From Candidatus Cryosericum sp. (GTDB lineage: Bacteria; Caldisericota; Caldisericia; Cryosericales; Cryosericaceae): 14,615 bases of DNA. The notes under the pieces were generated by a model, which was not told the origin of the DNA, did not search any database, and saw nothing but the letters and a program-made list of their open reading frames with translations. The position numbers and the translations under genes are program-made. The stretch covers positions 1 through 14,615 of the forward strand of contig JBNAWM010000007.1 in assembly GCA_049699855.1 (NCBI GenBank). The letters are read 5' to 3'. Shown in pieces: positions 4,748 to 14,615 of this stretch (within the stretch, counting starts at the first letter, position 1; every line of letters starts with the position of its first letter).

Positions 4748-4757
4748 TATACTATTG
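4748..4757 (+). promoter_or_regulatory. Putative sigma70-type -10 element for cobO-eamA (TATACT, within TATACTATTG)
   Basis: TATACT at 4748-4753, about 30 nt upstream of the cobO ATG. The same 10-mer recurs upstream of hutU. No clear -35. Confidence 0.45.
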
Positions 4758-4784
4758 ATAACATCCCCGCAATTGGAGGCGACG

Positions 4785-5309
4785 ATGGAACAGCATGGTC
4801 TTGTGATGATCTACACGGGCAACGGCAAAGGAAAGACGACTGCGGCACTGGGACTTGGTCTTAGAGCCATCGGCGCTGGACAGCGCGTTTTGCTGGTCCA
4901 GTTCATGAAAGGTGACCCGACGTCCTCTGAACTGCGTGCCCTGGCTCTGCTTCCCGGATTTGAAGTCATCCAGACTGGTTCACACCAGTGGGTGACAAAG
5001 GGGAAGGCCAACCTGCTCGACAAAACAGAAGCACAGAGGGGGATGAATGTCGCCCGCAATGCATTTTTAGAAGAACGGCATGAACTGGTCATCCTCGATG
5101 AGCTCAATTGCGCGATCGATTATGGGCTCATTCCCGAGAGTGATGTCCTGGAATTGCTGACGCACAGGCCTCCGTTCATGTCAGTCTGCATCACAGGGCG
5201 TGGCGCTCCGGCTAATCTTGTAGAGGCCGCGGACATGGTCAGCGAGGTCATTGAGATCAAGCACCACTACCACAAGGGTGTGCCTGCCCAGAAAGGAATA
5301 GAGTTCTAG
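4785..5309 (+). CDS. cobO: ATP:cob(I)alamin / cob(I)yrinic acid a,c-diamide adenosyltransferase (CobO/BtuR/CobA family), 174 aa
   Basis: Family motifs GLVMIYTGNGKGKTTAALG, VQFMKG, LVILDEL, ITGRGAP, ADMVSEV..IKHHY..GVPAQKGIEF. Start moved from the track's TTG at 4755 to ATG 4785, which follows SD GGAGG (4775-4779). Confidence 0.93.
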   Translation: MEQHGLVMIYTGNGKGKTTAALGLGLRAIGAGQRVLLVQFMKGDPTSSELRALALLPGFEVIQTGSHQWVTKGKANLLDKTEAQRGMNVARNAFLEERHELVILDELNCAIDYGLIPESDVLELLTHRPPFMSVCITGRGAPANLVEAADMVSEVIEIKHHYHKGVPAQKGIEF

Positions 5310-5327
5310 CGCCGCTGGCGGCATCGT

Positions 5328-6263
5328 ATGAAGCCTTCACATGGGCACGCATGGGGACTGTTCAACCTTGGCGCGGCCGCAACCATCTGGGGCAGCACCT
5401 TTGTTGTCAGCCGTTACGCCTTGGCCAGCATCTCATTTCTCGACCTGGTGATTATGAGGTTCATCTGCTCGACCGTGCTGTTCCTGGCCCTTTTTCTCAT
5501 CCGGCGGCCACACATGCCGCATGGGCATGAATGGTGGTTGTATTTGGGCAGTGCCGTCACCGGCTACGTACTGTCCATTCCCCTTCAGTTCCTTGGGACG
5601 TCGCTCACAAGCGCGCACATCGGCTCGATTGTCACGTGCGCAACGCCTCTCGCCATGGTTGTCCTGGCCGGGCTCTTTCTGCACGAGCGCATCCGGCTGC
5701 GTGACATACTTGCCATCAGCATCGCTCTCGCCGGGGTGGCGCTGATCTCGCTGGAAGGACTGCGGCGTTCATCCGGCCCCAGCGGCATCCAGTGGCTTGA
5801 AGGCGTTGTCGCCTTGCTGGGCGCTGCCGTCACATGGGCGCTCTATTCCCTGTTTCTGCGGCTGATTACCACGCGCCAGTCCTCACTGGCCGCTACCGGC
5901 ATCAGCAACGCACTGGGACTGTTTATCCTCCTGCCACTCTTCATCCCACACGCCGGGGAGGTCTCCAAGACCGTCAAGGCACACCCTCTGCTTGGCCTCG
6001 CCATTGCCTACCTCGGAACCGTCTCCACATTTCTGGGTTTCTTCCTGTGGACACTGGGCCTCCAGCAGGTCTCCAGTATCTCTGCCTCCTCACTCATGTT
6101 CTTCTTTCAACCACTGGCGGGCACACTGCTGGGCGCCTTGGTGCTGAGGGAGCAGGTCAGTGCCCCGACGCTCGCCGGTGGCCTGCTCATCTTCATTGGG
6201 CTGGTCAGCGGCATCAGCAGACCGCCCGTCAAGGAATCTCTGGAAGACCCCGTCCCGCTGTAA
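5328..6263 (+). CDS. EamA/DMT-family membrane transporter (about 10 TM, two EamA repeats)
   Basis: Highly hydrophobic. Motifs IWGSTF, MRF, 'PLAMVVLAGLFLHERI' and the second-repeat 'QPLAGTLLGALVLREQV...GGLLIFIG'. Begins 18 nt after the cobO stop, so probably co-transcribed. Confidence 0.88.
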   Translation: MKPSHGHAWGLFNLGAAATIWGSTFVVSRYALASISFLDLVIMRFICSTVLFLALFLIRRPHMPHGHEWWLYLGSAVTGYVLSIPLQFLGTSLTSAHIGSIVTCATPLAMVVLAGLFLHERIRLRDILAISIALAGVALISLEGLRRSSGPSGIQWLEGVVALLGAAVTWALYSLFLRLITTRQSSLAATGISNALGLFILLPLFIPHAGEVSKTVKAHPLLGLAIAYLGTVSTFLGFFLWTLGLQQVSSISASSLMFFFQPLAGTLLGALVLREQVSAPTLAGGLLIFIGLVSGISRPPVKESLEDPVPL

Positions 6264-6302
6264 CACCAGCCTGCGCTGGAACACGCCACGATGAGATCTG
6301 CT

Positions 6303-6312
6303 TATACTATTG
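6303..6312 (+). promoter_or_regulatory. Putative -10 element for hutU (TATACT, within TATACTATTG)
   Basis: Identical 10-mer to the one upstream of cobO, in the eamA-hutU intergenic gap. No clear -35. Confidence 0.45.
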
Positions 6313-6386
6313 CCGGAAAGGACACCGTTGCGTGCCCGGGCAAAGACAGCATCAAGGAGCAAGAAACAACCAGGAGGAAGTCAACC

Positions 6387-8417
6387 ATGAGCAACATTGA
6401 TGCATCAAACGCAATGACGATCAAGCTGGATGATGAGTTACCGGAGATGCCGGAATTTGTGGACGGCGTTCGGCGGGCTCCGGCAAGAGATTTCCGCCTG
6501 AGCAAGGAGCAGACGAAGATTGCGCTCAAGAACGCCCTGCGCTACATCCCTGAGCAATATCACAAAGCACTGGCGCCCGAGTTCCTGCAGGAACTCATGA
6601 CACGCGGCAGGATCTATGGCTACCGATTCAGACCCTCAGGAAGGATCTATGGAAAACCCGTCGACGAGTACAAGGGCAAATGCCTGGCGGGCAAAGCCTT
6701 GCAGGTCATGATCGATAACAATCTGGACTTCAACGTTGCCCTCTACCCCTACGAACTCGTGACCTATGGCGAGACAGGCAGTGTGTGCCAGAACTGGATG
6801 CAATACCGCCTCATCAAGAAGTATCTGGAGAATCTGACCGAGGATCAGACGCTGGTCATGGAGTCAGGACATCCGGTAGGATTGTTTCCATCCAAGCCAG
6901 AGGCCCCGCGCGTCATCACCACCAATGCACTGATGGTCGGGATGTTTGACAATCAGGATGATTGGGAAGTCGCCGAAGAAATGGGGGTTGCCAATTATGG
7001 ACAGATGACCGCGGGTGGCTGGATGTATATCGGTCCCCAAGGCATTGTTCATGGCACCTTCAACACACTGCTCAACGCCGGGCGCCTCAAGCTTGGCATA
7101 CCGCACGATCAGGATCTGCGCGGGCACCTGTTTGTCTCCTCTGGCCTTGGTGGCATGAGCGGAGCACAGCCCAAGGCTGTCGAAATAGCCGGAGGCGTGG
7201 GGATCATCGCAGAGGTGGACGCATCACGGATCGAGACACGTCACCTGCAGGGATGGGTGAGCAAGGTCAGTTCAGACCTGGACGAGATCTTTAAAACAGC
7301 GGGCGAGCACCTCCGGACAAAAGAGCCCATCTCCATCGCCTATCACGGCAACATCGTGGATCTCCTCGAATATGCCGTCAAGAACAATGTCCCCATCGAA
7401 CTCCTGTCCGATCAGACGTCCTGCCATGCGGCATATGACGGCGGATACTGCCCGCAGGGCCTCACCTTTGAGGAGAGAACCCGCATGCTGGCCGAGGACA
7501 GAGAAGGCTTCCGCAAGCTCGTGGACAAGAGTCTGAGGCGTCACTTTGAACTCATTAGAACCCTGGTCGACCGCGGAACCTATTTCTTTGACTACGGCAA
7601 CTCATTTCTGAAGGCTGTCTTTGACGCAGGGGTCCAGGAAGTCTCCCGCAATGGCAAGGACGAGAAGGATGGATTCATCTTCCCCTCCTACGTGGAAGAC
7701 ATCATGGGCCCAATGCTGTTTGACTATGGCTATGGCCCATTCAGGTGGGTATGCCTCAGTGGCAAGCGAGAAGACCTCATCAAGACGGACAAGGCGGCCA
7801 TGGAGTGCATCGACAGCAACAGGAGGGGACAGGACCGCGACAACTACATCTGGATTCGCGATGCTGAGAAAAACAACCTTGTCGTCGGCACCCAGGCCCG
7901 CATCCTCTATCAGGACGCTGAGGGAAGGTTGAAGATTGCTCTCAAGTTCAACGAGATGGTACGCAACGGCGAAATCGGGCCCGTCATGCTGGGCAGGGAC
8001 CACCATGACGTGAGCGGCACCGACTCACCCTTCCGTGAAACAGCCAATATCAAGGACGGAAGCAATGTCATGGCTGATATGGCCACACAGTGCTTCGCGG
8101 GTAACGCCGCACGTGGCATGACGCTGGTGACCCTGCACAATGGAGGCGGCGTCGGCATTGGCAAAGCCATCAACGGCGGCTTTGGACTGGTTCTGGATGG
8201 CAGCCAGAAAACAGATGCCATTATCAAATCTGCACTGCTGTGGGACGTGATGGGAGGTGTGGCGCGCAGATCATGGGCAAGAAATGAACACTCCATTGAG
8301 ACCGCCACCGAATTCAACAGGGACTACGCGGGACTCGGCCATATCACTATTCCCTTCATTCCCGACGAGGAGTTGATCGAGGATACCGTCAACCACAGCT
8401 GGAAGCCGCGCGATTGA
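6387..8417 (+). CDS. hutU: Urocanate hydratase (urocanase), long form, 676 aa
   Basis: Motifs ELVTYG, YGQMTAGGWMYIGPQGIVHGT, GLGGMSGAQP, SDQTSCH, FDYGN, GPFRWVCLSG, GRDHHDVSG, HNGGGVG. Start placed at ATG 6387 behind SD AGGAGG (6372-6377) rather than the track's 6291. Confidence 0.95.
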   Translation: MSNIDASNAMTIKLDDELPEMPEFVDGVRRAPARDFRLSKEQTKIALKNALRYIPEQYHKALAPEFLQELMTRGRIYGYRFRPSGRIYGKPVDEYKGKCLAGKALQVMIDNNLDFNVALYPYELVTYGETGSVCQNWMQYRLIKKYLENLTEDQTLVMESGHPVGLFPSKPEAPRVITTNALMVGMFDNQDDWEVAEEMGVANYGQMTAGGWMYIGPQGIVHGTFNTLLNAGRLKLGIPHDQDLRGHLFVSSGLGGMSGAQPKAVEIAGGVGIIAEVDASRIETRHLQGWVSKVSSDLDEIFKTAGEHLRTKEPISIAYHGNIVDLLEYAVKNNVPIELLSDQTSCHAAYDGGYCPQGLTFEERTRMLAEDREGFRKLVDKSLRRHFELIRTLVDRGTYFFDYGNSFLKAVFDAGVQEVSRNGKDEKDGFIFPSYVEDIMGPMLFDYGYGPFRWVCLSGKREDLIKTDKAAMECIDSNRRGQDRDNYIWIRDAEKNNLVVGTQARILYQDAEGRLKIALKFNEMVRNGEIGPVMLGRDHHDVSGTDSPFRETANIKDGSNVMADMATQCFAGNAARGMTLVTLHNGGGVGIGKAINGGFGLVLDGSQKTDAIIKSALLWDVMGGVARRSWARNEHSIETATEFNRDYAGLGHITIPFIPDEELIEDTVNHSWKPRD

Positions 8418-8514: not shown

Positions 8515-8547
8515 AAAAGGGCCTCCGTAGCAGCCGGAGGCCCTTTT
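8515..8547. terminator. Bidirectional intrinsic terminator between convergent hutU and cysM
   Basis: Perfect 13-bp inverted repeat AAAAGGGCCTCCG-tagcagc-CGGAGGCCCTTTT, giving a T-run on both strands. Confidence 0.85.
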
Positions 8548-8565: not shown

Positions 8566-9453
8566 CTACTCAAACAGCGCTGTGCTGGCGTAGCGGTCGC
8601 CACGGTCGGGGAAGATGACCACGATCACGCCACGTGCCAGTGTGCCAGCAAGCTCCATGGCTCCCCACAGGGCCGCACCGCAGGAGATGCCTGCATTGAT
8701 GCCTTCCTTGCGGTAGAGCTCACGTGCAAGGTCAAAGGCGGGGGCGTCTTCCGTCATCCGCAGCGTCACATCCAGGCTAGCGAAGCTAAAGATACCGGGG
8801 GTGTAGGCCGCCATGTTGCGCAGTCCCTGGATCTTGCTGCCAGCGATCGGTTCGACCCCGACCACCTTCACGTGTGGCGCCTGCCGGTGCATGAAGGCGG
8901 ACAGTCCGGCCAACGTGCCGCCCGTCCCCATGCCGGCCACCACGTGCGTCAGCTCCGGAACGTCCCGCAGGATCTCGGGGCCGGTCGTCTCTTCGTGCGA
9001 ACGAGGGTTGGCGCTGTTCTCGAACTGGTTGAGGTTGACCCATGACGGGTCCTCCGCCAGCATCTGCTGTACCGTTTTGATGGCCAGGTTCGTGCCGCCG
9101 GCAGCATCGGTGAGGACGATATCCGTGCCGAACATCTTCATGACCTTCCGGCGCTCGATGCTCGCGCTCTCGGCCATCACGGCTCGAAACCTATAGCCAC
9201 GCAGAGTTGCGATCATGGCCATGGCGATCCCGGTGTTCCCGCTGGTGGCTTCCAGCAGCTGGGAGCCAGGCTTCAGCACACCTCTTTCCTCGGCGTCCCT
9301 GAACATGCTGAGGACTGGGCGGTCTTTGATTGATCCCCCTGGGTTGCTGCCCTCCAGCTTCGCCAGGATCCGAACCCTGGAATTTGTGCTGAAGTGTTGA
9401 AGCTCGACGATTGGTGTGTTGCCAATCAAATCAAGGATGGAATTCGTTCTCAT
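8566..9453 (-). CDS. cysM: PLP-dependent cysteine synthase, CysM type; probable O-phosphoserine sulfhydrylase (295 aa)
   Basis: PLP-lysine motif AKLEGSNPGGSIKDR, EATSGNTG, NQFEN, GMGTGGT, GISCGA and C-terminal PDRGDRYAST. The loop reads KIQGLRNM (Arg-containing, CysM-like) rather than CysK's KIQGIGAG. SD AAGGAG; overlaps the upstream gene by 23 nt. Confidence 0.88.
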   Translation of the reverse strand: MRTNSILDLIGNTPIVELQHFSTNSRVRILAKLEGSNPGGSIKDRPVLSMFRDAEERGVLKPGSQLLEATSGNTGIAMAMIATLRGYRFRAVMAESASIERRKVMKMFGTDIVLTDAAGGTNLAIKTVQQMLAEDPSWVNLNQFENSANPRSHEETTGPEILRDVPELTHVVAGMGTGGTLAGLSAFMHRQAPHVKVVGVEPIAGSKIQGLRNMAAYTPGIFSFASLDVTLRMTEDAPAFDLARELYRKEGINAGISCGAALWGAMELAGTLARGVIVVIFPDRGDRYASTALFE

Positions 9454-9847
9454 GTGATTTCTCCTTTAGGAGCGCCAGGGGTACGTTGACACCATGGGGC
9501 ATATCCGGCATGGTGTGGCGCGAGGTCTTGGCAGGCATGAGGTCCCCGGTAAGGCCCGCTCGCATGACCTCCGCCTTCGTGACATGTTCTCCGGCTCTCC
9601 AGGCAGCGACCGCAATGTGGTCACTGCTGTAGTCGACGAAATAGACAGGCACATATTTGTATCCCATACGCTTGAGAGCATTGTAGCGGTGATGGCCGTC
9701 TAGAATCACCATGGTCCGCTGATCCACGATGATGGGGTCCTTGATCATGCCGTCCCGCACCAGATCGTGCTGGATTCTCGTCAGGTTCTCGTTCAGAATC
9801 TGCTCGTGTTGCCGCAGGGCACTCACCGGCATCAGTGTTATCGTCAT
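9431..9847 (-). CDS. ParB/Srx-fold protein, putative free L-serine kinase (compact SerK/SbnI-like), 138 aa
   Basis: Motifs LRQHEQ, PIIVD, ILDGHHR, a Trp (AAW) and VTKAEV...G.LMPAKTSRH resemble SerK/SbnI-type serine kinases. No HTH or dimerisation domain of a partition ParB. Start at ATG 9847 behind SD AAGGAG (9853-9858). Confidence 0.72.
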   Translation of the reverse strand: MTITLMPVSALRQHEQILNENLTRIQHDLVRDGMIKDPIIVDQRTMVILDGHHRYNALKRMGYKYVPVYFVDYSSDHIAVAAWRAGEHVTKAEVMRAGLTGDLMPAKTSRHTMPDMPHGVNVPLALLKEKSHENEFHP

Positions 9848-9875
9848 CTGTTCTCCTTCTCTGCACGTTTGCAAC

Positions 9876-9907
9876 AAACAAAAAAGCCTCCCATCTCCGG
9901 GAGGCTT
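9876..9907 (-). terminator. Intrinsic terminator (attenuator) in the 5' leader of the serK-like/cysM unit
   Basis: Minus strand AAGCCTCCC-GGAGAT-GGGAGGCTT followed by TTTTGTTT, ending about 30 nt before the downstream start codon on the same strand. Confidence 0.85.
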
Positions 9908-9950
9908 CGCATGTTCGGTGTGTGGATATGCGACTAGCGATGCCCCTCGG
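9897..9950 (-). promoter_or_regulatory. Predicted antiterminator helix, mutually exclusive with the 9876-9907 terminator
   Basis: Minus-strand CCGAGGGGCATCGC (9950-9937) pairs with GCGAAGCCTCCCGG (9910-9897) at 12 of 14 positions (one G-U, two mismatches). The second segment contains the whole 5' arm of the terminator. Confidence 0.7.
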
Positions 9951-9996
9951 TATGCTGCGTTTCACAGGTACAGGTATACATCGCCATATATGTCAT
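9934..9996 (-). CDS. Putative Cys/Met-containing attenuator leader peptide MTYMAMYTCTCETQHTEGHR (20 aa), apparently leaderless
   Basis: ATG ACA TAT ATG GCG ATG TAT ACC TGT ACC TGT GAA ACG CAG CAT ACC GAG GGG CAT CGC TAG. Two Cys codons (9972-9970, 9966-9964) and three Met codons. The 3' codons form the antiterminator arm. No convincing SD; the ATG is 6 nt after a putative -10. Confidence 0.65.
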   Translation of the reverse strand: MTYMAMYTCTCETQHTEGHR

Positions 9997-10002
9997 GGGT
10001 TC

Positions 10003-10030
10003 ATTGTGCCCCGATAGGCATACACATCAA
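10003..10030 (-). promoter_or_regulatory. Putative sigma70 promoter TTGATG-N16-CACAAT for the leader/serK-like/cysM transcript
   Basis: Minus strand -35 TTGATG (10030-10025), 16-nt spacer, -10 CACAAT (10008-10003), then 6 nt to the leader ATG, so the predicted +1 falls at or next to the A of the start codon. Confidence 0.5.
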
Positions 10031-10051
10031 CCTCTGTCATGACCATGCCGT

Positions 10052-10429
10052 TCACGATTTCCTGTTGTGATAGTCCTCAATCGCTAGGTGCAGCGCCTGA
10101 ATGGCATATCCGGCACAACGCCACTTGCTCTCGGGAAGACCTTCCAGCAATCCGGACAGATATGGCATGTCGATGGTCAGAGCTTCGTCGACCGTCTTGC
10201 CCATCAGCTCCCTGCTGAGAACGGAGAGCGTAGCAATGAGGGCTGTGCACCCGGCGATGCGGTATTTGGTCTCTGTGATATGCCCAGCCGCATCAACGTT
10301 GATATAGAAGGTCAGCTCCACAGCATCTGTGTTGTCTGCTACATGCCCCACCCCGGAGGGATCTTCAATGTGCCCTATGTTGCTGGGACTCATGAACTCT
10401 CGAATGGTGGCCCGACTGTACTTGTCCAT
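10052..10429 (-). CDS. NifU_N/IscU-like protein, atypical (first conserved Cys absent), 125 aa
   Basis: YS...F.SP.NIG.I, AGC..LIA..S, GKTVDEAL.I and GLPESKWRC...AIQAL..AI.DY align with the IscU/NifU_N pattern. Lies 6 nt downstream of the nifS stop. Confidence 0.85.
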   Translation of the reverse strand: MDKYSRATIREFMSPSNIGHIEDPSGVGHVADNTDAVELTFYINVDAAGHITETKYRIAGCTALIATLSVLSRELMGKTVDEALTIDMPYLSGLLEGLPESKWRCAGYAIQALHLAIEDYHNRKS

Positions 10430-10435
10430 TGTGCC

Positions 10436-11602
10436 TCAGGACATCGAACGCAGGAACTTGACAAGGTCAGGAATGACGTCTGCGGCATAGTCGATGTCCT
10501 TCTCTGTCGTGAAATACCCAAGCGACAGGCGTATCGACGACTTCGCTTCCTTCAGGTCACAGCCAATAGACGTCAGTACATGCGACGGCACTGTCTCCAG
10601 CGCGTTACACGCCGACCCGCCCGCTGCGATGATGCCAGCCTCGTTCATGGCGAGGAGCAGGGGCTCGTTGTCGATTCCATCGATGCGGATGTTCAGGTTC
10701 TGTGGCACCCGCTTCTTCATATCACCATTGACGGTCACCCCGTCGATACGCGTGTAAAGTCGTTCCAGCAGCATATCACGCAATCCCGTCAAACGCTTGA
10801 GCTCACCCGGCAGCCGTTCCCTTCCCAATTGCGCAGCCTTGCCAAGACCAACGATGCCCGGCACGTTGTGGGTAGAGCCACGCAACCCCCACTCCTGTCC
10901 ACCCCCGTCCATGAGTGGATACAGGGTGGCCGCATCCCGCACATACAAGATGCCCACACCTTTCGGCCCATTAAATTTGTGTGCCGAGATACTGAGAAAA
11001 TCGACGCCCAGGGTGTCCACGGCCACCGGAATGTGCGCTGTCGTCTGGACGGCATCCGTATGCATAAGGGCACCATGTTCGTGAGCGATCTGCGCAATCT
11101 CGGCAATCGGCTGGATGGTTCCAATTTCATTGTTTGCATGCATCACCGATACCAGCACTGTCGAAGGTTGCATAGCCCGCCGGACATCATCAGGATCTAC
11201 AATGCCATCCCTCCCGACCTTTACGAACGTCACATCGTACCCCTGACGCTGAAGAGTCAGGGCGCTGTGAAGGATCGCGTGATGTTCAAACTCGGTCGTC
11301 ACCAGGTGGCCACGCCCATGCAGCTTTTCGCGCGAAGCCCGCTCGACTGCTCCCTTCAGGGCCCAGTTGTCGGACTCAGTCCCGCCGCTCGTAAACACAA
11401 CCTGCTCGGGACGGCAGTCGATGAGGCCCGCGACGCGCTCCCGCGCATCCTCGACGGCTGTGTGAGCCATATCACCCATGGACGAATGCATGTACGTCAT
11501 GGGATTGGCAAACTGTTCCGTAAAAAACGGTTTCATTTCATCGTACACAAGCGGCTCGACCTGCGTTGTCGCCGCATTATCCAGGTAGACAACTCTGTCC
11601 AT
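10436..11602 (-). CDS. nifS: Group I cysteine desulfurase (NifS/IscS family)
   Basis: YLDNAATT, FTSGGTESDN, EHHAI, ANNEIGTIQP, HTDAVQ, PLP-Lys SAHKFNGPKGVG, GGGQE, catalytic-Cys loop GGSAC...PSHVL, SSIRLSLG. SD GGAGG (11609-11613) spacing favours the second ATG (11602) over 11605. Confidence 0.92.
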   Translation of the reverse strand: MDRVVYLDNAATTQVEPLVYDEMKPFFTEQFANPMTYMHSSMGDMAHTAVEDARERVAGLIDCRPEQVVFTSGGTESDNWALKGAVERASREKLHGRGHLVTTEFEHHAILHSALTLQRQGYDVTFVKVGRDGIVDPDDVRRAMQPSTVLVSVMHANNEIGTIQPIAEIAQIAHEHGALMHTDAVQTTAHIPVAVDTLGVDFLSISAHKFNGPKGVGILYVRDAATLYPLMDGGGQEWGLRGSTHNVPGIVGLGKAAQLGRERLPGELKRLTGLRDMLLERLYTRIDGVTVNGDMKKRVPQNLNIRIDGIDNEPLLLAMNEAGIIAAGGSACNALETVPSHVLTSIGCDLKEAKSSIRLSLGYFTTEKDIDYAADVIPDLVKFLRSMS

Positions 11603-11721
11603 CATTCGCCTCCAGATTTGCAGCGCTCAAGTTTTGCGTTAACAAGCGCCTGCACGGACTCAGGAGCTTTGGCCACTACAATTCCTCAAGCGGCAAGACA
11701 GAACTCTCCTGCGTTCATACC

Positions 11722-11822: not shown

Positions 11823-12521
11823 CTAGGAACGCCCGCCAAGCAACGCCTGTATGGTTTCCTCTGTCCTGGGGGCCTCGTGCACCGTGGCATCGGCCACCAC
11901 GTACAGCCGGTCGGGGAGCAGGCGGATAGTCTCCAGATTGTGCGTGGACAACACGACCGACTTCTGCCTTGCTGTCGCCCAGGAGACGAGGCCATGAAGT
12001 TCGCGAAGGCTTGGCAGGTCCAAGTGAAGCTCGGGCTCATCCATGAGGAGGATGTCTGTCCACTGTGCCACGAGGGCAAGCAGCATGACTTTGCGCTGCT
12101 GCCCCGAAGACATCTCATCCAGGAAGCGCTGGCCCAGTCCGCTGACCTCAGAGAACACAGCGGGGTGATCAGAGGCTTCGAATTGTTGCAGTGACCGCAG
12201 ACGTCCCATCGAGCTGAGTTCGATGACCTCATCGACGGTGATATGCGCCTGCGGCAGGGCGGGCGAGAGGAACCCGATGGTCGATGCCAGCCGCTGCTGA
12301 TTCATGGACCCCAGTGGATAGCCCTCTACCAGAACCTGCCCACCGAGAACAGGAAGGAATCCACGCATCGTGCGCAGAAGCGTTGATTTTCCCGTCCCAT
12401 TGCGTCCGACCAGTGCAACGACCTCGCCAGAAAGAACTGTCATCGTCACCCCGCTGAGAACGGGGTCGCCCCGAGCATAACCAACGGCCGCGTCCACGAG
12501 CTCAAGCCGAGAGGCGTTCAC
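11823..12521 (-). CDS. ABC transporter ATP-binding subunit (FecE/BtuD-like), 232 aa
   Basis: Walker A GRNGTGKST, signature variant MSSGQQRKV, Walker B LLMDEP, H-loop STHN. GTG start overlaps the permease stop (GTGA); SD GAGGAGG. Confidence 0.88.
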   Translation of the reverse strand: MNASRLELVDAAVGYARGDPVLSGVTMTVLSGEVVALVGRNGTGKSTLLRTMRGFLPVLGGQVLVEGYPLGSMNQQRLASTIGFLSPALPQAHITVDEVIELSSMGRLRSLQQFEASDHPAVFSEVSGLGQRFLDEMSSGQQRKVMLLALVAQWTDILLMDEPELHLDLPSLRELHGLVSWATARQKSVVLSTHNLETIRLLPDRLYVVADATVHEAPRTEETIQALLGGRS

Positions 12522-13555
12522 AGCACCCTCCTCGACTTGATCGCCAGCCAGATCAGGAATGGGGCTCCAAAGAGGGACAGGACGGTGTTCAGAGGAATCT
12601 CCGATGCACTCACCGAGCGCGCGATCACGTCACCCACGACCACGATGTTCGCCCCCATGAGCATGGTGAGGACCACAAATGTCCTGTCAGTGCGCCTCGT
12701 AAGCAGGCGGGCCATGTGGGGAGAGAACAGCCCAGCGAAGCCCACGACACCAGAGGCGGCGACATCAGTCGCAGCAAGGACAACGCTCATCAGCAGCATT
12801 GCAAAGCGGATGGCCTCCACGCGGACACCCAGGTTCTGGGCGAAGTCATCACCCACCAGATAGGAGCGCAGGGGGCGCATCAGGCTCATGACGGCCGGCA
12901 CGACCAGGATCAGCCCGATAGCCACCACCACGATGCCCGGCAGTGAGGCGCGATTGAGTCCCATCCAGGACCAGAAGATTGTGTTGGAAAGAATGTCAGG
13001 ACGCGTCGAGACCAGGACTGACTGCAGTGCGTTCAGCATATAGGAAAGAGCCAGTCCCGACAGAAGAAAGGCCAGGAGGTCATGGCCAATGCGCCGGCTG
13101 ATGATGAGCAACAGCGCCAGAACGGCAAGTGCGCCGGCTAGAGGGGCCAGGATCATGATCGGCACCGAGGCAACGGTCCCTGCAAGACCAAGCAGTGCCA
13201 CCATGGTCACCGCCAGTTGAGCTCCACCCGAGACGCCCAGCAGGTAGCTGTCCGCAAGGGGATTGCGAAAAGCAGTCTGCATCAGAAAGCCAGAGAGCCC
13301 AAGGGACCCCCCGACCAGAACACCCAGTCCAACGCGCAGCAGCCTAAGCTGGACAATCTGCGCTTCCGGCGTCTGCACGGAAGACCCACTCATCAGAAGG
13401 CTCATTCCGTGCACCACCTGCCTCGGCGTCAGCCCTGCACTGCCAAAGAAAACACTGGCAGAAGCAAGAAGAACCAGCAGTGCGGCTGTGCTTGTCAGCA
13501 CAGCCGCATTCTGTCGCCCAGTCTTCAGGTCAGGGCTGGGCAGCGCGCTGAACAT
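12518..13555 (-). CDS. ABC transporter permease, FecCD/BtuC family (cobalamin/iron-chelate), 345 aa
   Basis: LRLLRV...GGSLGLSGFLMQ..FRNPLADSYLLGVSGGA, GDDFAQNLGV, SGVVGFAGL..PH.AR, EIP......LFGAPFLIWL are FecCD/BtuC signatures. Confidence 0.92.
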   Translation of the reverse strand: MFSALPSPDLKTGRQNAAVLTSTAALLVLLASASVFFGSAGLTPRQVVHGMSLLMSGSSVQTPEAQIVQLRLLRVGLGVLVGGSLGLSGFLMQTAFRNPLADSYLLGVSGGAQLAVTMVALLGLAGTVASVPIMILAPLAGALAVLALLLIISRRIGHDLLAFLLSGLALSYMLNALQSVLVSTRPDILSNTIFWSWMGLNRASLPGIVVVAIGLILVVPAVMSLMRPLRSYLVGDDFAQNLGVRVEAIRFAMLLMSVVLAATDVAASGVVGFAGLFSPHMARLLTRRTDRTFVVLTMLMGANIVVVGDVIARSVSASEIPLNTVLSLFGAPFLIWLAIKSRRVL

Positions 13556-14615
13556 ATCCTGCGATCAAGTTCAGCCCCTGGATGATGCGAGGCGATGGGC
13601 GGAAGATGTAATCGCCGGGAATCTCATACACCTGTCCCTTCTTGACAGCGGTTACCGTTGCGAACGCTGTCCGTCCAGTAACGTCGCCCGCTCCCATGCC
13701 GGAGGCAACAATGATGATCTCCGGGTTACGGCTGATGACAAACTCTTCTGACAAGACTGGCCAGGCAGTGTTGGTGTCATCGCCGATATTTGTTCCACCT
13801 GCGACCGCAATGAGATCTGACAGGAACGTGCCTTTGCCCGCGCTCATGAGGGGGCTGTTCCAGATCTCCACGTAGACCGGTGGCTTGCGGGGCAGTTTCT
13901 TTGCTGCTGTGGCGACCTTCTCGATCGATCGGTGCATGGAGAGTGCCACTTCGAAGCCGCGGTCTGCCACGCCCAGCACCACCGCCTCTGACCGGATTGC
14001 CTCCACGATGCCAGTGAGAGTCTTGGGGTCATCAGCATACACATTGCGGCCCATCTTCCGGAGCTGCTCCACCACCGAGAGGGGAGTGCCATTCGTCACC
14101 AGGATCACGTCAGGTGAAAGGACCAAGAGTTTCTCCAGCGAAGGATTCGTAAAAGCGCCAACCGTGGGGATCTTCGTCGCCTGCTCCGGGTAGTCGGTGT
14201 ACTCGGAGGTAGCAATGATATTGCTGCCCTGACCGAGCGCGAAACAGTTCTCTGCAAGGTTGGGGGCCAAGGTTACGATGCGCATGTGCCCGGCCTTGGC
14301 AGGAAAGGTATCATGCTGATACCCAAGGACATCCTGCATCGTAGATGGGATCTGAAGGACAATGGAGGTCAGCCCGCTTCGGGTGGAGACCGTCAGCGTG
14401 CCGCCAGCTGCCCTGACGTAGTCGCCAAGGACATCATCCGAGAAGTACAGCGTTCCGGTTCTGCCTGCAGTGCGGAACAGGTCACCTCGCACTGATGATG
14501 CATACGTGCTGTCGATGAGGGTTCCGGAACCAAGTTCATATGCACCGGCCACGGGGCCAAGCGCAAAGTAGACGGTCTTGCCGGATGGCTCGAATCGTAC
14601 CACGCCCCCGGCTGC
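13530..14615 (-). CDS. Substrate-binding protein, BtuF/FecB (helical-backbone) family, with an N-terminal extra domain; 5' end beyond the right edge
   Basis: RIVTLAPNLAE, TDYPEQA, VGAFTNPSLEKLLVLSPDVI, SAGKGTFLSDLIAVAGGTNI, WPVLSEE...NPEII, AVKKGQVY, RPSPRI match BtuF-like binding proteins. The frame is open from the GTG at 14603 to the window edge (GCA GCC GGG GGC GTG), so the true start is probably outside. Confidence 0.88.
   Translation of the reverse strand, partial: AAGGVVRFEPSGKTVYFALGPVAGAYELGSGTLIDSTYASSVRGDLFRTAGRTGTLYFSDDVLGDYVRAAGGTLTVSTRSGLTSIVLQIPSTMQDVLGYQHDTFPAKAGHMRIVTLAPNLAENCFALGQGSNIIATSEYTDYPEQATKIPTVGAFTNPSLEKLLVLSPDVILVTNGTPLSVVEQLRKMGRNVYADDPKTLTGIVEAIRSEAVVLGVADRGFEVALSMHRSIEKVATAAKKLPRKPPVYVEIWNSPLMSAGKGTFLSDLIAVAGGTNIGDDTNTAWPVLSEEFVISRNPEIIIVASGMGAGDVTGRTAFATVTAVKKGQVYEIPGDYIFRPSPRIIQGLNLIAGYVQRAAQP

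Follow-up and report, generated by a model that had tools for sequence, protein, structure and literature searches.

A predicted cysteine-sensing transcription attenuator with a leaderless leader peptide in Candidatus Cryosericum, and relatives with arginine codons in place of cysteine

On a contig of Candidatus Cryosericum, an iscU-like gene (10429-10052) and a ParB-like gene (9847-9431), both on the minus strand, leave a gap of 204 nt, which very probably holds a ribosome-mediated transcription attenuator, built on the trp/his design, that would sense Cys-tRNA(Cys). We base this on comparing related sequences and on simulated RNA folding. By the window we mean the whole stretch of DNA that was analyzed, 14,615 nucleotides long. 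The gap contains the whole element, which reads in order on the minus strand as TTGATG, 16 nt, CACAAT, 6 nt, a 20-codon open reading frame (ORF), 26 nt, a hairpin, a U run, 31 nt, and the next ATG. The initial annotation had named a promoter, an ORF without a Shine-Dalgarno (SD) sequence, Cys codons, an antiterminator and a terminator, and when we recomputed the coordinates all of these parts lay at the minus-strand places given for them. The features are the following.

10025..10030, minus: -35 box TTGATG; TTGAC in most relatives, with TTG invariant in 37/37 leaders
10003..10008, minus: -10 box CACAAT, ending 6 nt 5′ of the leader ATG; final T in 37/37 leaders, A2 in 35/37
9934..9996, minus: leader ORF of 20 codons, MTYMAMYTCTCETQHTEGHR; ATG at 9996, stop at 9936-9934
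9970..9972, minus: putative control codon Cys9; Cys in 27/32 leaders of 20 codons
9964..9966, minus: putative control codon Cys11; Cys in 28/32; in the simulation, the farthest codon at which a ribosome still leaves the antiterminator free
9979..9986, minus: segment 1, pairing with 9935-9942 (the 1:2 protector helix) if free of ribosomes; present in the minimum free energy fold of the window
9937..9950, minus: 5′ strand of the antiterminator (segment 2), with 9897-9910 as its partner
9907..9933, minus: small hairpin 3′ of the stop codon, fitting the terminator state; -6.0 kcal/mol
9879..9907, minus: intrinsic terminator hairpin and U run (stem 9907-9884, U run 9885-9879); -19.0 kcal/mol
9853..9857, minus: SD sequence AGGAG of the SerK-like gene, read from the sequence
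9431..9847, minus: short SerK/SbnI-like (ParB-fold) putative serine kinase, 138 aa; best PDB match a free serine kinase
8566..9453, minus: CysK/CysM-family cysteine synthase, 295 aa; TIGR01136 at 330 bits (cut-off 344), CysM models next
8515..8547, minus: operon-end hairpin with an A run before it and a U run after it, read from the sequence

Conservation of the leader and its control codons

As far as sequence comparison goes, conservation is the decisive evidence for the element being real. The leader is present in all 46 related loci examined, 37 of them distinct. These are 18/18 genome loci that have 5′ DNA, counting the window, and 28/28 metagenome loci, which were taken from 80 at an identity of at least 55%; two further loci, L019 and L147, were dropped for having no 5′ DNA. 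The serK-like gene itself occurs in 18 of the 22 other genomes of the genus, and promoter, ATG, frame, stop and terminator are kept with it although the genes upstream change. An RNA model run over 61 genomes gave 18 strong matches, all of them in the genus and before serK, with one strong copy per genome. Twelve weak matches, among the 44 matches listed, were rejected as gene-end terminators. Upstream of cysE-cysK or cysK in nine loci of other families of the class, we found no comparable leader; at a tenth such locus the DNA does not extend upstream.

The leader ORF is open, with its stop in register, in all 37 distinct leaders, and it begins with ATG in 36. Its length is 20, 21 or 22 codons, the insertions and deletions being of whole codons only, and three different stop codons are used. 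At least two Cys codons fall within codons 9-13 in 32/37 leaders, while codons 7, 8 and 10 are variable. Among the 32 leaders of 20 codons, codon 9 is Cys in 27 (TGC in 25, TGT in 2) and Arg in 5, while codon 11 codes for Cys 28 times and for Arg four times; Cys occurs two or three times in each of the five longer leaders. As a chance background, a comparable Cys-pair ORF lies upstream of 16 of the 1234 ORFs of this genome. Two observations count against the attenuator reading: five of the 37 leaders are without one or both Cys, and the control codons are just two and not adjacent.

An alignment of orthologous upstream regions had been proposed in the initial annotation, and in it the small ORF (sORF), its start, its stop and its Cys codons prove to be conserved, and the helices carry compensatory changes. 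The same annotation had spoken of a Cys/Met leader. The Cys half of that description holds, codons 9 and 11 being kept, and the Met half does not: among leaders of 20 codons Met4 is found in 3/32 and Met6 in 24/32, and codon 6 lies inside the 1:2 helix, so that Met sensing was rejected.

The promoter reads as had been described, with TTGATG and CACAAT 16 nt apart, then an ATG 6 nt on and no SD. A generic promoter scan of 9500-10500 called no promoter. Genome-wide, TTGAC + 16 nt + nAnnnT is the enriched promoter form (119/893 vs. 28-66 at other spacers, the 66 at 17 nt), and 6 nt is the peak distance from a -10-like box to an ATG (28 vs. 3-18 at other distances). Because of this enrichment and this peak, leaderless starts are plausible in this genome. 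None of the 37 leaders has an SD-like word at -4 to -14 of its ATG, and the bases at -6 to -2, between the -10 box and the ATG, vary (16-30 of 37 leaders). From the promoter geometry and the absence of an SD we infer that the leader ORF starts leaderless. Several genes in genome G000 appear leaderless as well, with an ATG 6 nt past a -10 box.

The sole exception to the ATG start is locus L018 (G003:C27), which has AGG in its place, a poor promoter, a serK with a stop and a split cysM. Such joint damage to promoter, leader start, serK and cysM would be what is expected of a decaying operon.

RNA structures and the predicted switch

In the mechanism we propose, RNA polymerase would start at or next to the ATG, and a ribosome would load on the leaderless ORF and trail the polymerase. 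With ample Cys-tRNA, the ribosome would pass codons 9 and 11, cover 9950-9937 and halt at the stop (9934); the antiterminator would be blocked, and the hairpin 9907-9884 would form and terminate transcription near 9880. With scarce Cys-tRNA, the ribosome would wait at codon 9 or 11, its footprint taking in segment 1 and some 13 nt beyond. This would leave 9950-9937 to pair with the emerging 5′ arm of the terminator, and the polymerase would read on into the genes for the SerK-like protein and the cysteine synthase. RNA that is not translated, for example read-through from iscS-iscU, could fold the 1:2 helix and would be terminated.

The terminator at 9907-9884 is the single terminator-like site called in 9500-10500, a result that by itself is near chance (shuffle mean 0.5). 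The leader as a whole folds at -46 kcal/mol (z -3.5), beating 200/200 shuffles. For the 40-nt middle, the energy of the antiterminator is reached by 3/500 shuffles and its pairing probability by 41/500. The pairing of 12 of 14 positions, 9950-9937 with 9910-9897, was reproduced when recomputed. As for the spacing that had been noted with it, the second Cys codon (9966-9964) does lie 13 nt upstream, but measured to the antiterminator strand and not to the terminator arm.

The alignment of 34 distinct rows lets each helix be compared with the same helix slid out of place and with shuffles. The 1:2 helix and the terminator taken together have 96.9% of cells paired, against 30-56% when slid, and four pairs with two-sided change; 0/500 shuffles reach this level, where all such counts for the helices are not probabilities and are inflated because the rows are kin. 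Taken alone, the 1:2 helix has 93% of cells paired with two-sided changes in 2/8 pairs, and the terminator has 100% with two pairs changed on both sides. The antiterminator has 82.8% of cells paired vs. 33-51% when slid, with two pairs showing two-sided change, G-U to A-U in seven rows and a mismatch repaired in four; its covariation score is reached by 1/500 shuffles. On the first 18 genome loci the antiterminator failed against the shuffles on most measures (45, 329, 32, 484 and 6 of 500). The small hairpin 9907-9933 belongs to the RNAalifold consensus, with two-sided changes in 3/18 rows.

We simulated the ribosome by ending the nascent RNA at the 5′ arm of the terminator and blocking everything up to 13 nt beyond the A-site codon. 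In the window, the probability that the terminator arm is held by upstream RNA stays near 0.9 as far as codon 11 and then falls to 0.7 at codon 12, 0.4 at codon 13 and 0.2 at the stop. Placing the ribosome on the last control codon gives an arm pairing of 0.8-1.0, and placing it at the stop gives no more than 0.4; this is so in 36/37 leaders, the poor switcher being L148 (0.6 at the stop). In leaders of 21 codons the switch edge moves to codon 13, and L016-L018, in which the antiterminator is shifted, have a third Cys there. For the full-length RNA at equilibrium, all ribosome states give the terminator a probability of 1.00 (12 of 18 loci), and no switch is visible. Refolding faces a modest barrier (median 7.1, range 3.5-12.0 kcal/mol). 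Since the terminator wins on the full-length RNA and the barrier is modest, the attenuator model needs co-transcriptional timing; classical attenuators rely on timing too. U runs are interrupted in many relatives, which counts against the attenuator reading. The one RNA run found contained 0.08 of the words; its five contigs all lie outside the leader and so weigh neither for nor against the switch.

The initial annotation had proposed an attenuator read through at low Cys-tRNA, and the conserved sORF and Cys codons, the compensatory helices, the lack of a riboswitch match and the cysteine genes downstream all support that reading. Four alternatives have to be weighed against it. In the first, which we regard as improbable, the switch is the same and the ribosome is held by another cause, for instance a metabolite-sensing arrest by the nascent peptide, or translation slowing down in general. 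Within the genus the C-terminal codons (ETQHTEGRR) are well conserved, as arrest would have it, and four leaders function without Cys codons, if they are functional at all. Those C-terminal codons, however, fall in helices. In L016-L018, L148 and every distant locus the peptide is a different one, with nothing in common but the Cys run and its position. In addition, a ribosome stalled close to the C-terminus would, according to the simulation, keep the antiterminator from forming.

More doubtful still is a riboswitch, a T-box or a protein-bound leader, with the ORF as a by-product of constraints on the RNA. High nucleotide conservation and alternative helices would suit any conditional terminator. 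But the ATG in 36/37 leaders and the stop in 37/37, by way of three stop codons, together with indels of whole codons within the ORF, speak against this alternative. A match to a known riboswitch or T-box model that explains the leader had been named beforehand as what would refute the attenuator reading. In the window we find no Rfam match at the gathering score (the best weak match has an E-value of 0.3 and covers the terminator hairpin only). Cys-specific T-boxes also sense the charging of tRNA(Cys) and control a terminator, and they need T-box RNA and no translation; such RNA was found neither in the window nor, with model RF00230, in any of four genomes of the genus.

The two remaining alternatives are the least credible, and to about the same degree. 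One is translational attenuation as in mycobacteria, in which the leader would pair with the SD belonging to the following gene, with the hairpin in a secondary role. It is suggested by the available text of 10.1101/834739, where a leaderless Cys-containing sORF stands before cysteine genes. Here, however, pairing of the SD with the leader ORF exceeds a probability of 0.3 in only 3/37 leaders, with no consistent shift with ribosome position, and an invariant terminator lies in between.

The other is that the hairpin is the mere terminator of the iscS-iscU operon, and the ORF due to chance or coding for a small peptide with a job of its own; a CxC peptide could bind metal. No terminator other than the leader hairpin is called between iscU and serK, which favors this alternative, and which also means that read-through from the desulfurase and scaffold genes may reach the attenuator too. 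Yet the element accompanies serK across loci with different upstream genes, there is one strong copy per genome and always before serK, and Cys changes to Arg where argGH follows. Moreover, the distance from terminator to SD is only 22-29 nt in the 37 leaders, so that there is no room for a promoter in between.

Genes of the locus, distant leaders and known systems

Upstream of the predicted attenuator lie genes for a NifS/IscS desulfurase and a NifU/IscU scaffold (window 10052-11605, minus). In several relatives other genes sit between these two and the leader.

For the SerK-like protein, matches are found to the archaeal free serine kinase of solved structure (E-value 4e-11) and to SbnI. It aligns to the N- and C-terminal parts of the kinase, with about 100 middle residues missing. 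Against NF053625 (SerK) it scores 66.5 bits where the cut-off is 380, and it has 138 aa against about 244, so that it is below the cut-off and not full length. Still, the HEQ, DGHHR and C-terminal RH motifs align with the solved kinase, and E15, D50-R54 and R110-H111 are invariant in eight rows. The Glu of the HEQ motif is presumably the catalytic residue of the kinase. The same short form of SerK is found in archaea and in uncultured bacteria.

The CysK/M synthase is present in single copy and is the sole cysteine synthase of the genome. We find no full-length match to cysE in any of the 23 genomes of the genus, and five of the other 38 genomes of the class have one; cysS is present in 4/4 genomes of the genus. 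That the downstream genes follow the logic of a cysteine sensor, as had been claimed, is borne out by a SerK-like protein next to the only CysK/M in a genus without full-length cysE. We infer that the two proteins fit the route from Ser through O-phosphoserine to Cys that the available text of PMC5120207 describes. The pair resembles the SerK-CysK pathway of Thermococcus kodakarensis in that text, and SbnI, in combining a ParB-like free serine kinase and a cysteine synthase without a serine acetyltransferase. It is unlike the T. kodakarensis SerK in being a bacterial protein of reduced size, lacking the middle residues and scoring far below the family cut-off, and its activity is a prediction.

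Elsewhere in this genome, a leader of 28 codons with Trp-Trp-Trp and a terminator precedes trpB (G000:C10:19097-19368, minus), which indicates that the leader-attenuator design is in use here. Similar Trp leaders are seen in 3/22 other genomes of the genus (L217-L221). A genome scan for other leaders gave three candidates and, having missed the present element itself, is insensitive.

Outside the genus, a leader with a Cys run stands before a short serK or a cysM-serK in 7/11 named bacterial loci and is missing in the other four (L051, L077, L079, L083). Among the metagenome loci L155-L171, 12 of the 13 with enough 5′ DNA carry such a leader, several of them before a serK without an adjoining synthase. 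These loci are as follows.

L043, L044, L049, L078, L080, L082, L084: named distant loci with a leader; near-leaderless ORF of 15-31 codons, Cys run (CC to CCCC) near codons 9-13, hairpin and U run
L155-L157, L160-L162, L164, L166-L169, L171, L182: additional loci, likewise with near-leaderless ORFs carrying CC to CCCC, and a terminator-like hairpin

The hosts are TM6, Saccharibacteria-labelled and other bacteria. When the distant leaders were simulated, the antiterminator was lost 0-2 codons past the last Cys of the run (codons 9-13) in 7/7. Against these loci, the background of 16/1234 given above is a rough control, since the distant genomes are richer in A+T. Several of the distant leader-serK loci sit between genes that we take, from their translations, to be groEL and lemA. 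Upstream of position 3001 in L082 there are two tandem Cys ORFs with the terminator between them; the ORF past the terminator is Cys-rich and possibly a second layer of control. In archaeal loci, a Cys-pair ORF with a terminator is found in 0/31, and one without a terminator in 3/31. Among the remaining loci examined for upstream leaders, 7/95 have too little upstream DNA. Because Cys leaders precede its gene, the unannotated ParB-like protein of 125-140 aa of many uncultured bacteria can be predicted to have a role in cysteine synthesis via phosphoserine.

By all testable features, the element would belong to the leader-peptide transcription attenuators, with its function predicted. It is like the trpL, hisL, thrL, leuL, pheL and ilv attenuators, as presented in the available parts of 10.1101/834739 and PMC13236596, in having a short ORF with codons for the end product, a 1:2 helix, an antiterminator overlapping the end of the ORF, an intrinsic terminator and the footprint geometry (the available part of the latter uses a 26-nt occlusion centered on the control codon). 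It is unlike the classical attenuators in that the control codons are Cys, two in number and not adjacent, the start is probably leaderless, the host belongs to the Caldisericota, and no Rfam leader family matches.

Two earlier lines of work come closest with respect to cysteine. The mycobacterial polycysteine sORFs are leaderless, as the present one would be, and like it contain Cys and precede cysteine-related genes; stalling at Cys turns expression on (10.1101/834739, available text). According to that text, it is the SD region that the Cys tract pairs with, and control is shown not to be by transcription termination, whereas here terminator and antiterminator are conserved and SD pairing is not; it also states that attenuation by an upstream ORF (uORF) had not previously been described for cysteine. 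The accessible portion of PMC1262725 predicts leader peptides with Cys codons before cysteine operons (cys/cbs) in Actinobacteria; according to that portion these have no conserved terminator hairpins, unlike the terminator conserved here, and their mode of regulation is left unknown. As far as their available text goes, PMC13096801 and PMC13236596 cite only the mycobacterial system for Cys, and there is no Cys leader in the main text of PMC2965389 or in that of PMC11109978, which names there two of its eight uORF candidates.

In a literature search that covered mostly papers outside subscription, we found no published terminator-type Cys attenuator, and nothing turned up on regulation in the genus Cryosericum or its phylum. 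Lopatovskaya and co-workers reportedly made a comparative survey of attenuators in 2010. The mechanism is textbook material, unlike the proposed choice of Cys as the amino acid sensed. As a leaderless, terminator-type Cys attenuator from a phylum that branches deeply, the element would fill a gap.

Leaders with arginine codons

Four distinct leaders have Arg at both codon 9 and codon 11: L137 (identical to L139 and L140), L144, L145 and L146. These Arg-x-Arg leaders keep promoter, start, stop, helices and the simulated switch. The arginine genes argG and argH, both over the cut-off, lie downstream on the same strand in L137, L139, L144 and L146; L145 stops before the junction with argG. The operon-end hairpin is deleted in L137, L139 and L140; L144 and L146 retain it with mismatches and without the U run. 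In L144-L146, a deletion fuses serK to the end of cysM, with most of cysM lost. Among the 23 genomes of the genus, one has argG.

Two sets of loci serve as controls. In L141-L143, argG lies behind an intact hairpin with a short U run; both Cys are kept and Arg13 is gained, giving Cys-x-Cys-Lys-Arg. In G019 (L211, G019:C12:28500-40000), argGH lies 4.5 kb off behind an intact hairpin, and both Cys are kept. We think it likely that the Arg-x-Arg leaders are a natural retuning of the attenuator from Cys to Arg. If that is true, two point changes would be enough to make an arginine sensor out of a cysteine sensor. Decay could also yield Arg codons, since Cys to Arg is a single transition, and argG may keep a promoter of its own. 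Two loci call for caution about the retuning, L009 and L133, which have Arg9 with no argG behind. They share with L137/L139 an identical promoter and first ten codons, and beyond these have 82-97% identity to them; identity at the 5′ part only suggests recombination inside the leader. A further locus, L151, has Arg13 and little downstream DNA.

A tree on 1290 nt was distorted by the deletion in L144-L146, and we rebuilt it on 325 nt of serK with 33 rows, leaving out L016-L018, L148, L151, L154, L009 and L142. In this serK tree, five of the six Arg-x-Arg loci form a supported group beside L141/L143, with L144 elsewhere. A single Arg-x-Arg clade is not rejected (p-AU 0.09), and the change was probably one event.

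The sequences suggest an order of events: arrival of argG-argH behind the operon, gain of an Arg codon, loss of the terminator, Cys to Arg twice, and partial deletion of the cysteine genes. Taken jointly with a widespread and so far undescribed family of leaderless Cys attenuators that would travel with a minimal bacterial serine kinase in Caldisericota, TM6/Babeliae, Saccharibacteria-labelled and other uncultured bacteria, this is a picture towards which we lean, a little less firmly than towards the retuning alone. In the literature searched, again mostly outside subscription papers, we found neither an Arg leader before argG nor a natural specificity switch from Cys to Arg. The Cys-x-Cys, Cys-x-Cys-Lys-Arg and Arg-x-Arg alleles go along with argG-argH coming to lie behind the operon and with the disappearance of the hairpin in between (in L137:2351-5411, L139, L140 and L141-L146). 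They would be a ready series on how the specificity of an attenuator changes.

As to the rest of the window, the end of the contig (1200-4571, minus) carries genes for a type I/III restriction-like helicase and for a KilA-N domain protein, and is an ordinary defense or mobile region. Window 11823-14603 (minus) and 4755-8417 (plus) have FecCD-type ABC transporter genes, together with genes for a corrinoid adenosyltransferase, an EamA transporter and urocanase.
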